From: a virus
Taxonomy: Duplodnaviria > Heunggongvirae > Uroviricota > Caudoviricetes
Virus record (IMG/VR): IMGVR_UViG_2579778535_000003
DNA: 5,702 nucleotides
Strand: one strand, 5' to 3'
Shown here: positions 1,796 to 3,433 of the stretch, piece by piece
Numbering within the stretch: position 1 is the first letter of the stretch
How the letters are laid out: every line of letters starts with the position of its first letter
The notes under the pieces: model-generated
The model's database searches: none
Told to the model about the DNA's origin: nothing
The model's input: the letters and a program-made list of their open reading frames with translations, nothing else
Program-made: the position numbers and the translations under genes

Positions 1796-1824
1796 TTGCG
1801 TACGCGTTAGCGCTTTTGTATATT
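1796..1824 (+). promoter_or_regulatory. Sigma70-like promoter for the plus-strand two-gene operon
   Basis: TTGCGT (1796-1801), 17-bp spacer, TATATT (1819-1824), about 34 bp upstream of the ATG at 1858. The TTG at 1816 used by the ORF track lies inside this promoter. Confidence 0.5.
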
Positions 1825-1857
1825 CAGCTTAATCCTATGTATTTATGGAAAAATAAG

Positions 1858-2889
1858 ATGAGCAAGCGTGAAATCAAAACTAAAAAAATAATCTATAAAG
1901 AAGTCACAATGTCAGGTGTGTCAAAGACGCTCCAGTCGATGCTAATGGAGCTGCTCAAAAAACACACTAAAGCAGATTCTCGCAAGGAAATGGTCAACCC
2001 AGGAGAGGAAGACTTATTCCGATTAATTAATAAACATGAAGAGTTCCAGGGAATGCTGTTTTGCCAGCTTGTTGCCTTCGAACCAGGCCATTCTCAACGC
2101 TATATACAACTTAAAAATGATGCTGAATCTTATGAAATAAGATCCGTAACATCAGATGAACTTTCTAAAATGACTGTTGAAGAAGCTGAAGAAGCACGCA
2201 CAGAGAGGGAACAGGTTGTGCGTGAGTTTATAGATTCAATTCTTTATTTCGGTGTATTTGGTAACAGCATCGTAGTAATGCAATCCAGATCTCTTACAAC
2301 AAGAGAACTTGAAACACATCTGAAATGGTTACTTGGCTCTTTAAGCAATTACTTAGGCGCAGAAAACATCTTAAAAGTTTCCGATAAACCCAAAGAAGAG
2401 ATCATTGAGGAAGTTCTAAAACGACCTGTAAAATCAGTCTCTATAGGCGCACCTGTAACTGCCGTTAACGAATTGAGACAAGGAAGCAAAAGCCCAAGCT
2501 GGGTTCCCGCAGGAACTGCCTCTGAACTCCTTAAAGCTATGTTAGCAGAGAAATGGGAAAGCTTCTTACGTAGTAGCAAGCTTGAAGATTGTCTTGATGA
2601 CGCTAATCTTGAAGTAACACTGAAAATCACATACAAGAGGAAAACTTCTGATTCAGGAGAAAGGATGTTAAGAAATCTTGTTGACGCGACCAGACACTAC
2701 CCGGATGATGACGTCGTTGTTGAAATGGTTGGTGGGACGCGTTTAACAGGTAAAGAGATTCGTTTATGGAATACTGTTAAACTCACAACTTACAATAGCT
2801 TGATTGATGAACATGAACTATATGGCCAAATGCATGATTGGATGGTCGCTCTGATCAACAATGGAGAAATAGAAGAGACCGATGAATAG
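1858..2889 (+). CDS. Hypothetical soluble protein (about 343 aa), first gene of a two-gene cargo operon; candidate sensor partner
   Basis: Long ORF (track 1816..2889). Preferred start is ATG 1858, with GGAA 8 nt upstream and downstream of the promoter; ATG 1909 is an alternative. AT-rich, with many ATA/AGA/AGG codons. No Walker, HNH, HEPN or PD-(D/E)xK motif seen by eye. Stop overlaps the start of the next gene (ATGAATAG). Confidence 0.8.
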   Translation: MSKREIKTKKIIYKEVTMSGVSKTLQSMLMELLKKHTKADSRKEMVNPGEEDLFRLINKHEEFQGMLFCQLVAFEPGHSQRYIQLKNDAESYEIRSVTSDELSKMTVEEAEEARTEREQVVREFIDSILYFGVFGNSIVVMQSRSLTTRELETHLKWLLGSLSNYLGAENILKVSDKPKEEIIEEVLKRPVKSVSIGAPVTAVNELRQGSKSPSWVPAGTASELLKAMLAEKWESFLRSSKLEDCLDDANLEVTLKITYKRKTSDSGERMLRNLVDATRHYPDDDVVVEMVGGTRLTGKEIRLWNTVKLTTYNSLIDEHELYGQMHDWMVALINNGEIEETDE

Positions 2890-3421
2890 AGAGGCTGGTA
2901 AGCGCGTATTCTACCAACAACCAAGTAGAGCATTCCACTTGGTTGTTGTTGTATTGCTTATGTCTACAGCCTGGTTTGTCGCCAATAAGTACATCATTTT
3001 AACATCCATTCCTTGGGGCGTATTAACTATACTCATTTTACCAATTGCAAGCAGCGCAACCCTGTTTCATAAGTTATCTGAAACCCAAAAAAACGTTGCT
3101 GAGGATTTATCTCGCAATGAACAAAGAAGGTTAACAAGGCTTATTAAAGAAAAAAGCCGGGCTACATTATTCATGCTTACGCTACAAATTTCGATAATAA
3201 TTTTTGTGGCATTGATTAGCCTTGGCAATGAGTCCTCTTTTGTTCAACAGCACATTCATACTATAAGTGAATTCGTTGTTTGTGCTTTGGTTTTTTCACT
3301 ATACTCATTAATTCCAGTTTTACTAGGGGTAAAGGAAGTTATTGATTTTGAAGGATTAATAAAAACACGAAAAACATTAAACAAGCGTAAAAAATCTGCA
3401 TTATCCAAGCTTGGGAAGTAA
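2882..3421 (+). CDS. Small integral membrane protein (179 aa, four predicted TM helices); candidate membrane effector
   Basis: ATG 2882 overlaps the upstream stop by 8 nt, with ggagaaatagaagagacc upstream. Hydrophobic segments at about residues 18-36, 40-62, 94-115 and 128-150, a charged loop at 63-93 and a basic C-terminal tail (KTRKTLNKRKKSALSKLGK). Confidence 0.8.
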   Translation: MNREAGKRVFYQQPSRAFHLVVVVLLMSTAWFVANKYIILTSIPWGVLTILILPIASSATLFHKLSETQKNVAEDLSRNEQRRLTRLIKEKSRATLFMLTLQISIIIFVALISLGNESSFVQQHIHTISEFVVCALVFSLYSLIPVLLGVKEVIDFEGLIKTRKTLNKRKKSALSKLGK

Positions 3422-3433
3422 TCCAAGCTTGGG
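3403..3433. repeat. Tandem direct repeat of the 13-bp unit ATCCAAGCTTGGG, each containing the perfect 10-bp palindrome CCAAGCTTGG
   Basis: Copy 1 at 3403-3415 encodes the last codons of the membrane protein, spacer aagta contains its stop, copy 2 at 3421-3433 fills most of the 21-bp gap before the convergent Q stop at 3443. Because the unit is palindromic the two copies can also pair as a stem of about 10 bp. Confidence 0.6.

Follow-up and report, generated by a model that had tools for sequence, protein, structure and literature searches.

A candidate RexAB-type two-gene module of a large unnamed family, placed between Q and the late promoter of a lambdoid prophage

RexAB-type systems, which are recognised by fold, form an established category (PMC11077077, PMC12894663), in which the RexAB-like systems described by January 2026 numbered only five (PMC12894663). 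In the P. putida prophage P1, the pair RexABpp is formed by PP_5643 and PP_5644 (PMC12894663), and in actinobacteriophages Rex-like pairs are represented by Sbash gp30/gp31, CarolAnn gp44/gp43, and Butters gp30/gp31, which lie beside the immunity repressor or are inverted and separate from it (PMC11077077). The locus described here shares with lambda rexAB the two-gene operon, in which a soluble protein is followed by a small four-transmembrane (TM) membrane protein, and the carriage by a temperate lambdoid phage; relatives of the present pair also share the slot downstream of cI. In contrast to lambda rexAB, the pair studied here is reversed beside Q, outside the immunity operon. By description, it also resembles the actinobacteriophage pairs, each made of a soluble RexA-like and a membrane RexB-like protein, although their hosts differ.

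Organization of the block and its flanks

The window, the whole analysed stretch of 5,702 nucleotides (IMG/VR record IMGVR_UViG_2579778535_000003), contains a lambdoid prophage backbone of the Shiga-toxin-phage type, within which two genes lie on the plus strand, gene A (1858-2889) and gene B (2882-3421), both with an ATG start. Every identifiable backbone gene is on the minus strand, namely, those for DUF968 (5207-4161), RusA (4148-3777), the 117-aa antiterminator Q (3443..3796; Pfam PF06530, 1.5e-45), a conserved 65-aa ORF (1405..1602; phrog_331, 3.2e-47), which is annotated in relatives as a 198-nt CDS, and an N6/N4 DNA methyltransferase (1254-205), together with a 132-aa ORF. GC content is 0.34 to 0.42 over positions 1650 to 3600 versus 0.47 to 0.56 in the flanks. 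The two genes overlap by 8 nt, ATGAATAG (2882..2889, plus strand), at the stop codon of A and the start codon of B, through which translation of the two genes is likely coupled. A longer gene A with a TTG start at 1816 is unsupported because the homologues begin at the MSK... position. An earlier sequence-only reading of this DNA had described the two plus-strand genes, their 8-nt overlap, the AT-richness, and the minus-strand backbone, and it was correct on all of these points.

The low-GC cargo block measures about 1.6 kb and extends approximately from 1823 to 3440, with boundaries set by homology and GC profile. On the left, backbone homology to thousands of E. coli prophages stops at about 1805 to 1822, in agreement with alignment A3, and on the right homology to locus L011 stops a few nucleotides beyond the Q stop codon. 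Genes B and Q are convergent, with their stop codons 21 nt apart. The placement given by the earlier reading, between Q and the late region, can be refined, as the block follows the Q stop codon and precedes the entire Q-specific late promoter/terminator unit.

Ahead of gene A, a candidate promoter on the plus strand (1796..1824) consists of TTGCGT (1796-1801), a 17-nt spacer, and TATATT (1819-1824). It matches the consensus at 8/12 positions (3/6 in the −35 hexamer) and falls below the threshold of the promoter scan, and promoter-like sites are not in excess in the region (7 found versus 5.6 expected). The candidate straddles the left insert junction, with the −35 hexamer and the spacer being backbone sequence. 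It is conserved in loci L001 and L013, and in L011 another reversed cargo is preceded by TTGCGT-17-TATTTT. Thus, of the promoter that the earlier reading had assigned to the block as its own, the hexamers and their spacing are present, but the consensus is weak and part of the element belongs to the backbone. Transcription of A and B presumably starts from this TTGCGT-17-TATATT element.

On the opposite strand, the candidate promoter is overlapped by a candidate late promoter pR′ (1783..1810, minus strand; CTAACG, 16-nt spacer, TGTATC), located within a segment (approximately 1826-1753) that is common only to loci of the same Q type (L001, L011, L013, L033, and L034). A canonical sigma-70 late promoter in this segment is represented in the window by weak matches only, with a better match in L011 (9/12). 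Because of these weak consensus matches, the assignment of 1783..1810 as the putative pR′ rests on comparative organization. It is followed by a candidate tR′ (1726..1750, minus strand), a terminator-like hairpin, AAACCCGCCGATGAGCGGTTTTTTT, with a run of seven T residues, past which the 65-aa ORF is the first gene. A hairpin and T-run occupy the equivalent position in 6/6 aligned loci, and the stem is weak in the window (fold z of −1.5). At the other end of the block, RNA folding gives a hairpin with a 12-bp stem (3403..3434) between the convergent genes B and Q, with two ATCCAAGCTTGGG copies (direct repeat D2) straddling the B stop codon. Its folding energy is −21.8 kcal/mol (z of −5.4) on the plus strand and −20.1 kcal/mol (z of −4.5) on the minus strand. 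This hairpin is not a canonical intrinsic terminator, because it has no adjacent U-tract, and it may possibly serve as a bidirectional transcription barrier or as an RNA stabiliser.

Predicted fold, topology, and sequence comparisons

Gene A encodes a 343-aa soluble acidic protein (pI 5.4) with no hydrophobic segment (maximum 19-residue Kyte-Doolittle mean of 1.37), no enzymatic or toxin motif, and no match to any Pfam (E ≤ 0.1), NCBIfam, or PADLOC (E ≤ 1) model. Its template-free AF2 model (pLDDT of 74.5, pTM of 0.70) was compared by Foldseek with 350,542 PDB chains, and the only two matches at an E value of ≤1e-3 were both RexA (3e-5 and 1.7e-4). This is the structure search that the earlier reading had proposed. 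RexA (PDB 8TWQ) is the best-matching solved structure, and two independent structure-search methods set it apart from every other match. The model presents the RexA/RdgC-like arrangement, in which a globular alpha/beta domain is split by a dimerisation domain of a four-stranded beta-sheet and helix, as defined for the two-domain RexA fold (PMC11077077), and carries in addition a C-terminal alpha/beta extension. Compared with lambda RexA, protein A is 64 aa longer, has additional C-terminal beta/alpha elements, and is more acidic (pI 5.4 versus 8.6), although the medians of the two families are similar (6.0 versus 6.6). For the nonspecific DNA binding that, together with homodimerisation, characterises RexA, its bulk charge is thus less favourable, and DNA binding by A is uncertain.

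Gene B encodes a 179-aa basic protein (pI 10.3) with four Kyte-Doolittle peaks of ≥1.9, which predict TM segments at residues ~17-35, 38-56, 96-114, and 132-150 of an inner-membrane protein. Lysines and arginines are concentrated at the N terminus, in the central loop, and in the C-terminal helix, and the positive-inside rule applied to this pattern and to the hydrophobicity peaks predicts that both termini are cytoplasmic. The AF2 model is all helical (pLDDT of 78.5). This small four-helix architecture is RexB-like, and lambda RexB shares both the four-TM layout and the K/R-rich loop before TM3; protein B is 35 aa longer and has a long basic C-terminal helix. Four-helix membrane proteins are, in general, common. 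Protein B belongs to phrog_16807, to which no function is assigned, and has no significant match in Pfam or PADLOC. A Foldseek search of BFVD gave nothing significant (best E value of 0.037); a 165-aa Sbash protein was among its weak, nonsignificant matches (TM score of 0.53 to 0.57, E value of 0.7).

The sequence-only reading had thus described the products well, as a soluble protein with no visible catalytic motif and a small four-helix membrane protein. Clear homology to structural, lysis, or metabolic functions, which it had named as evidence against a defence module, was found for neither protein; holin families likewise gave no match. The holin, endolysin, and Rz genes of related phages are canonical and located elsewhere, and a holin, lysis, structural, or metabolic role was rejected.

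At the sequence level, all comparisons with RexA and RexB were negative. Neither A nor B matched PF15969/PF15968 or the PADLOC RexA and RexB models, which recovered the positive controls lambda RexA (1e-97 in Pfam, 9e-110 in PADLOC) and lambda RexB (8.5e-92 and 8.6e-61). The hhalign probability of A against the RexA family was ≤1.4% with a single sequence and with profiles of 27 and 148 sequences, and alignments A1 or A6 against a 25-sequence RexA alignment gave 0.3 to 0.7%; alignment A2 against RexB gave 1.3%. Unfiltered HMM cross-searches of A and B against RexA and RexB scored about 0 bits, and PDB sequence profiles gave no link of A or B to either protein. Since these searches and those in NCBIfam were all negative, membership of A and B in the Pfam RexA and RexB families was rejected. 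RexABpp differs in this respect, as HHpred ties PP_5643, known here by description, to RexA at 98%, whereas A has no profile-level signal; terminal peptides of RexABpp taken from published primers had no exact match in the viral and metagenome contigs scanned.

The RexAB reading is therefore supported at the level of fold and context, not of sequence. The RexA/RexB-type pairing put forward earlier is borne out by the fold of A, the four TM segments of B, the conserved pair, and the relatives adjacent to cI; sequence homology, which that reading had left unverified, was not detectable. Fold likeness alone, seen here in a predicted model, is compatible both with very remote homology and with convergence.

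Conservation of the pair and its genomic slots

The same-strand pair is kept in 21/21 related loci (32 to 88% identity), in each of which A is followed by a homologous partner of 161 to 225 aa with 3 or 4 TM segments and shared motifs, and it is also present in phages Perceval and phi1_092021. The operon thus has the RexAB layout of a soluble and then a membrane gene on the same strand, inherited together. By crude ORF calls, the junction between the two genes varies elsewhere from an overlap of about 45 nt to a gap of 32 nt. The dN/dS ratio is 0.02 to 0.20 for the pair and 0.12 to 0.20 for B, indicating purifying selection. The family comprises 722 clusters at 50% identity and is absent from the Pfam RexA/RexB families and from PADLOC v2. 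Its earlier description as an undescribed module holds in that the literature gave no specific prior name for the family, but the kind itself, RexAB-type systems identified by their fold, is already established, and one homologue from an Acinetobacter phage is labelled "DefenseFinder protein" in GenBank.

Members of the family are found in two slots, one facing a Q gene, as in the window, and the other immediately after a cI repressor gene. The first arrangement, convergent with a PF06530 Q gene, occurs in 9 further loci. The second, which is the slot of rexAB in lambda, is occupied in no fewer than 9 independent taxa or phages. The pair lies just downstream of a cI-type repressor and on the same strand in loci from Providencia, Morganella, Marinobacter, Chromohalobacter, Pseudomonas, and Methylococcaceae as well as in Acinetobacter phages, and Escherichia phage Perceval presents the order CI, A, TM protein, and Kil/Gam/Bet/Exo.

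Among 5,426 complete E. coli genomes, 14 carry the block, whereas 2,681 carry its left flank. The gap between Q and the late promoter has at least six alternative occupants, some of which are candidate defence systems; PDC-M53, Stk with PP2C, a CPBP protease, a 427-aa protein, or nothing was found in place of the block. The block is therefore rare, replaced by unrelated cargo in other phages, and not part of a conserved core, in line with the earlier proposal that it is variable cargo and with the outcome expected from the survey of this site suggested there. It was also found in Stx2a-converting phages. These data show that lambdoid and Stx prophages have in this gap a polymorphic site for cargo, and since some of its occupants are candidate defence systems, the site can be mined. 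A regulatory precedent is offered by phi80, in which the defence gene taiEcA is likewise reversed within the Q-controlled region (PMC11364771).

One occupant with the same layout is the PADLOC candidate system PDC-M53, as in Shigella phage SfII (genes 50/49), which has the same reversed orientation in the same gap and consists of a 340-aa soluble protein and a 194-aa four-TM protein. It nevertheless represents a separate sequence family. The PDC-M53A and PDC-M53B models matched neither A nor B nor any of 148 family members, while SfII_50 and SfII_49, as positive controls, scored 2.1e-32 and 2.8e-54. The hhalign probability of the A profile against SfII_50 was 1.4%, and the SfII pair was rejected as a relative of A and B for want of profile-level similarity.

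Proposed function, alternatives, and implications

Given the RexA fold of A and its four-helix membrane partner, the most likely reading is that the pair is a relative of the RexAB phage-exclusion system that has so far gone unrecognised. As a RexAB-type module of a large family without a name, it would most likely serve in abortive infection or exclusion. That it acts as a RexAB-type two-component prophage module, with a mechanism modelled on lambda RexAB and RexABpp, appears reasonably probable. In the lysogen, A and B would be produced at a fixed ratio from the short operon by means of the overlapping stop and start codons. Upon infection by another phage, A, the proposed sensor and activator, would sense a phage product or a DNA-protein intermediate and activate B, the proposed effector, which would compromise the membrane by depolarisation or leakage, leading to growth arrest and an aborted infection. 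Temperate phages would carry the module as mobile cargo, preferably in one of two slots, past cI or, as in this prophage, in reverse between Q and the late promoter of Q. In the second slot, a weak promoter, arranged back-to-back with the candidate pR′, would drive its expression, and early rightward transcription that continues through Q would run antisense to it, so that expression would tend to shut off upon prophage induction.

The fold and architecture fit equally well an inverted wiring, in which cytoplasmic A is the antiviral or toxic effector and membrane-bound B sequesters or restrains it until infection, and one of the five described Rex-like systems, Butters gp30/gp31, works by this logic (PMC12894663). 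It is unlikely here, as the membrane protein is the effector in 4/5 of the characterised Rex-like systems (PMC12894663), A lacks an enzymatic or toxin motif, and B is strongly conserved, with a long basic cytoplasmic helix and a loop motif that suit a regulated effector. No more probable is a role in the life cycle of the phage itself, whereby A, in the manner of lambda RexA, would bind DNA or a repressor and modulate the lysogeny-to-lytic switch or, in this prophage, the activity of Q and the late promoter, with B as an auxiliary. Members of the family do adjoin cI and Q, the two master regulators of lambdoid development, and the candidate promoters of A/B and of pR′ overlap in the window; against this, a strictly conserved membrane partner would be needless for purely regulatory DNA binding, the block is rare and dispensable, as its frequency relative to the flank indicates, and sister phages carry unrelated cargo instead, including a candidate defence system. 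In lambda, the regulatory and exclusion roles of Rex are not mutually exclusive.

The fold may also mislead, A being an RdgC-like protein, another DNA-transaction protein, or an unrelated one and the operon a non-Rex one, such as an addiction module of the toxin-antitoxin kind or a lysogenic-conversion factor. This is improbable, since RexA stands apart from all other matches in both structure-search methods, with RdgC (PF04381, PDB 2OWL) a far weaker structural match, the Pfam RdgC HMM does not match A, and the membrane partner and the slot adjacent to cI reproduce the rexAB arrangement; we know of no membrane partner of RdgC. Least probable is an envelope superinfection exclusion, by which B would block DNA entry or alter the inner membrane without abortive infection and A would be a regulator or chaperone. 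Small inner-membrane proteins encoded by prophages near immunity regions often confer superinfection exclusion, B is small, basic, and multi-TM, and SieB genes lie near the module in Providencia prophages. However, B has no Pfam similarity to SieB or other exclusion families, and its obligatory pairing with a RexA-fold protein is better suited to a sensor-effector system.

Should the pair be a working Rex-type system, this kind of system would gain a large family, with 722 cluster representatives, that current tools miss, and with it many natural variants for comparing how a RexA-fold sensor communicates with a four-TM effector. The family would then be recognisable through E. coli phage Perceval, where it would replace rexAB slot for slot.

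A broader reading, which we hold only tentatively, is that the pair belongs to a very large unnamed branch of Rex-type immunity whose second niche is the gap between Q and the late promoter, where it would sit reversed and antisense to early read-through, under a site-resident promoter overlapping pR′ in a back-to-back arrangement. In this broader reading, the branch would have diverged from lambda RexAB beyond sequence recognition and spread across the temperate phages of Gammaproteobacteria. Expression would be mechanically tied to lysogeny and extinguished on induction, and in Stx2a phages a module for abortive infection would lie about 2 kb ahead of stx2, its position between Q and the late promoter, within the Q-dependent pathway to stx2, having possible effects on induction and toxin output. 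Since the block was found in Stx2a phages a short way ahead of the late promoter from which stx2 is driven, the module may also matter for how phages compete and are induced in EHEC.

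Gene organization and insertion site

The backbone of this lambdoid prophage segment is transcribed on the minus strand, from position 5702 toward the left, and two genes, A and B, lie on the plus strand between the late antiterminator gene Q and an open reading frame (ORF) of 65 amino acids. A (343 aa, 1858 to 2889) and B (179 aa, 2882 to 3421) overlap by ATGAATAG, and the GC content of the block is 0.34 to 0.42 versus 0.47 to 0.56 on both flanks. The sequence-only reading, which described two overlapping plus-strand ORFs in an AT-rich block, was therefore accurate as to the ORFs, their overlap, and the GC drop. 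Among phage records, the nearest are Stx2a_1447 and Stx2a_WGPS2, two Stx2a-converting phages with 98% DNA identity over the block and the gene order Q, reversed A/B, 65-aa ORF, methylase, tRNAs, stx2AB, and lysis genes.

On the minus strand, the backbone carries a small ORF of 132 aa (5607 to 5209), DUF968 (5207 to 4161), RusA (4148 to 3777), and Q itself, a 117-aa antiterminator of the PF06530 type (3796 to 3443; E value of 1.5e-45). Only the C-terminal 66 aa of the 132-aa ORF match phrog_1212, and its real start is probably internal, as relatives annotate a protein of ∼90 aa there. Beyond the block, also on the minus strand, follow the 65-aa ORF (1602 to 1405; phrog_331), an N6/N4 DNA methyltransferase gene (1254 to 205), and, downstream of the latter, genes for a tRNA-Lys (UUU) and a CAT-anticodon tRNA (2 to 78 and 80 to 155). 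A mechanically called 125-aa ORF (1405 to 1782, minus strand) probably represents this same 65-aa protein, as annotated in relatives. The 65-aa ORF, labelled “TrmB family transcriptional regulator” in some O157 genomes, is the first gene past the candidate late terminator tR′ and occurs in about half of the complete Escherichia coli genomes. The CAT-anticodon tRNA is called as Met, its counterpart in related prophages is annotated as tRNA-Ile, and the tRNA set of the window is unlike the Ile/Arg/Arg set of Stx2a phages.

In cargo-free relatives, only 227 to 231 nt separate the Q stop codon from the 65-aa ORF, so that this interval must contain the late promoter pR′, qut, and tR′; one such relative has a lambda-like promoter, TTGATT-16-(TG)TAAATT, 6 nt past the Q stop. 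The window stretch 1603 to 1826 (224 nt) is as long as this interval and lies wholly to the left of the block, which by this comparison places the insertion (∼1823 to 3440) between the Q stop codon and the late-promoter/terminator unit of Q. Alignment to the left of the block revealed a minus-strand segment (∼1826 to ∼1753) common only to loci with the same short Q type (L001, L011, L013, L033, and L034), followed in each aligned locus, at the corresponding position, by a hairpin and T-run, past which the sequence is common to phages of any Q type.

The comparative organization points to a candidate pR′ at ∼1810 to 1783 on the minus strand (−35, 1810 to 1805; −10, 1788 to 1783), where the consensus match in the window is weak. 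A candidate A/B promoter, TTGCGT-17-TATATT (plus strand; −35, 1796 to 1801; −10, 1819 to 1824), overlaps it back-to-back on the opposite strand (1783 to 1824), and RNA polymerase occupancy of the two would thus be mutually exclusive. The −35 hexamer and spacer of the A/B promoter are backbone sequence; a near-identical element, TTGCGT-17-TATTTT, occupies the matching backbone position upstream of a different reversed cargo, the 427-aa gene of L011 (ETEC prophages), and the element is kept in Phytobacter. The candidate tR′ hairpin, CCGC-CGATGA-GCGG (1726 to 1750, minus strand; fold z of −1.5), is weaker than in relatives such as Stx2a_1447 (CCCGC...GCGGG), and the late terminator may be leakier in the window. 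At the other end of the block, two exact copies of ATCCAAGCTTGGG, each with a HindIII palindrome and 18 nt apart from start to start, straddle the B stop codon and form a 12-bp hairpin between the convergent B and Q genes (3403 to 3434; −21.8 kcal/mol, z of −5.4) that has no adjoining U-tract.

Proteins A and B compared with RexA and RexB

Neither protein matched any Pfam, NCBIfam, or PADLOC model, and the phrogs that contain A (phrog_3482) and B (phrog_16807) are both of unknown function. A word-indexed search retrieved 28 clusters for A and 15 for B, while an exhaustive profile search with A retrieved 722 representatives at an E value of ≤1e-3 (233 at ≤1e-30), nearly all full-length (315 to 360 aa), which places A in a large uncharacterised family.

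The template-free AlphaFold2 model of A (pLDDT of 74.5, pTM of 0.70) was searched with Foldseek against 350,542 chains, and the only matches with an E value of ≤1e-3 were two chains of RexA, the soluble member of the phage lambda exclusion pair (3e-5 and 1.7e-4). The AlphaFold2 training data predate the April 2024 release of the RexA structure, so the model does not reproduce a structure seen in training. The order of secondary structure elements also fits RexA, running from an N-terminal alpha/beta part through a central four-stranded sheet with helices to a C-terminal return, to which A adds a C-terminal beta/alpha extension. The low global TM-score (0.29 to 0.35) indicates that the domains of the model are oriented differently relative to one another; a hinge and swivel are documented for RexA, whose crystals captured a closed state (PMC11077077).

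B presents four strongly hydrophobic segments and an all-helical AlphaFold2 model, for which structural searching gave no significant match. Its lysines and arginines cluster at the N terminus, in the TM2-TM3 loop, and in a 29-residue C-terminal helix, a distribution that under the positive-inside rule suggests that both termini are cytoplasmic. Lambda RexB (L008, 826 to 1260) shares the four-TM pattern and the basic cytoplasmic loop before TM3, where QRRLTRLIKE (B, aa 78 to 90) resembles TRRLAKIRE (RexB, aa 68 to 78), a likeness that is a hint only. Both A and B are longer than RexA and RexB.

Membership of A in PF15969 (RexA) and of B in PF15968 (RexB) was rejected. Comparisons covered lambda RexA and RexB singly, a 25-member RexA alignment, and 27- and 148-member A profiles; hhalign gave probabilities of ≤1.4% with no sequence bridge, and HMM cross-scores were ∼0 bits, whereas lambda RexA and RexB, as positive controls, strongly matched their own Pfam and PADLOC models.

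Conserved pairing and variable cargo

Among 21 further loci with 32 to 88% identity, screened with an ORF and hydropathy script, A was followed in every case by an ORF of 161 to 225 aa with three or four TM segments, within ∼45 nt either way. These loci come from Franconibacter, Microbulbifer, Providencia, Phytobacter, Erwinia, Marinobacter, Oceanospirillum, Pseudomonas, Rosenbergiella, Morganella, Pantoea, Acerihabitans, Chromohalobacter, and several MAGs. The partners have in common with B a P-W where TM2 begins, an E-x-RRL loop motif, and a basic helix at the C terminus, and both genes are under purifying selection (dN/dS of 0.07 for A and 0.20 for B in the closest pair).

Two genomic positions recur. 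The pair is convergent with a PF06530 Q in Stx2a phages, Franconibacter, Phytobacter, Erwinia, Rosenbergiella, Pantoea, Acerihabitans, one MAG, and Shigella phage SfIV, and lies directly downstream of a same-strand cI-type repressor in Providencia, Morganella, Marinobacter, Chromohalobacter, Pseudomonas, Methylococcaceae, one MAG, and Acinetobacter phages. The clearest cI-slot case is Escherichia phage Perceval, whose order (CI, A homologue, “transmembrane protein,” Kil, Gam, Bet, Exo) makes the pair, by gene order, a slot-for-slot replacement of lambda rexA-rexB. In Acinetobacter phage phi1_092021 (L030, 3501 to 5008), GenBank labels the A homologue downstream of the repressor (33% identity) “DefenseFinder protein” and its four-TM partner (167 aa) “hypothetical”; some annotation pipeline thus already ties a member of the A family to a defence database entry, and PADLOC gave no match for this homologue. 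SfIV (L031, 2405 to 4324) has a 356-aa A homologue (32% identity) in the Q-to-holin gap, but an IS transposase insertion leaves only 108 aa of the B partner, so its system is probably inactivated.

The proposal that the block is variable cargo rather than conserved core held: of 5,426 complete E. coli genomes, 2,681 carry the left-flank backbone (at 5,668 places in all) and only 14 the block. Elsewhere the Q-to-pR′ gap is empty in some relatives or holds other genes. With the same short Q, L011 has the reversed 427-aa gene (2099 to 3382), which is unrelated to A/B and has no Pfam or PADLOC match. Shigella phage SfII (L012, 2580 to 4194) has the reversed pair SfII_50 (340 aa) and SfII_49 (194 aa, four TM), matching the PADLOC candidate system PDC-M53A/B (2.1e-32 and 2.8e-54), which resembles A/B in architecture without profile-level similarity and, judged from that architecture, could be another Rex-like analogue. 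An E. coli O104:H4 prophage (L033, 2657 to 4809) carries a reversed “nucleoid-associated protein” (391 aa) and a hypothetical protein of ∼404 aa, the O157:H7 Xuzhou21 prophage (L034, 2676 to 3494) a CPBP-family intramembrane protease on the same strand, and an ETEC locus (L002, 3822 to 5326) a Ser/Thr kinase and a PP2C phosphatase. Overall, the gap resembles a general hotspot for cargo or defence genes.

Predicted function and expression

RexAB-type systems recognised by fold rather than by sequence are an accepted category, of which only five had been described by January 2026 (PMC12894663). A/B fits this category on every testable feature while lying outside the RexA and RexB sequence families; the RexAB-like character proposed from the sequence is thus supported in fold, architecture, and, for the family, context and fails in sequence-family membership. 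Together, the structural model and gene context support a RexAB-type module with a predicted function in phage exclusion. Compared with known RexAB systems, its family is large, unnamed, and currently undetected, and has a second, Q-adjacent niche. The Pseudomonas putida prophage pair RexApp/RexBpp (PP_5643/PP_5644) is close in size and, on that likeness, might belong to the same family, which would lower the novelty. A literature search of incomplete coverage found no paper naming the family or describing the Q-to-pR′ gap as a defence hotspot. A/B introduces no new principle but is a testable lead that broadens the classic, poorly understood Rex system, and the analysis points to a cargo hotspot in Stx-type prophages.

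Other readings have low probability. A RexA-like role in the lysis-lysogeny or late-gene switch, which may coexist with defence, is plausible given that A/B adjoins cI or Q, yet it leaves both the obligatory membrane partner and the dispensability of the block unexplained, and its chance is small. An equally small chance goes to a Butters-type wiring, where the soluble protein would be the effector and the membrane protein would restrain it. It is a little less likely that the fold resemblance of A to RexA is misleading, and exclusion of superinfection at the level of the envelope ranks as the least likely.

For the favored RexAB-type module, the overlapping A stop and B start codons fit the sensitivity of Rex systems to A:B stoichiometry (PMC12894663). 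In Q-adjacent copies, expression in the lysogen would be driven by the weak TTGCGT-17-TATATT element. After induction, early rightward transcription through Q would continue antisense into B and A, with only the strong, non-canonical hairpin at 3403 to 3434 lying in between. This layout, which includes the overlap with the candidate pR′, would tend to keep the module off once the phage itself enters lytic growth, and a comparable arrangement and rationale have been described for phi80 taiEcA (PMC11364771).

In the Providencia prophages with A/B in the cI slot (L006 and L007; 2217 to 3666 and 10464 to 11538), the nin region also contains a gene for an RdgC homologue (PF04381), and a gene for a SieB exclusion protein lies close to pL, so that a protein with a predicted RexA fold and an RdgC protein occur within one phage.
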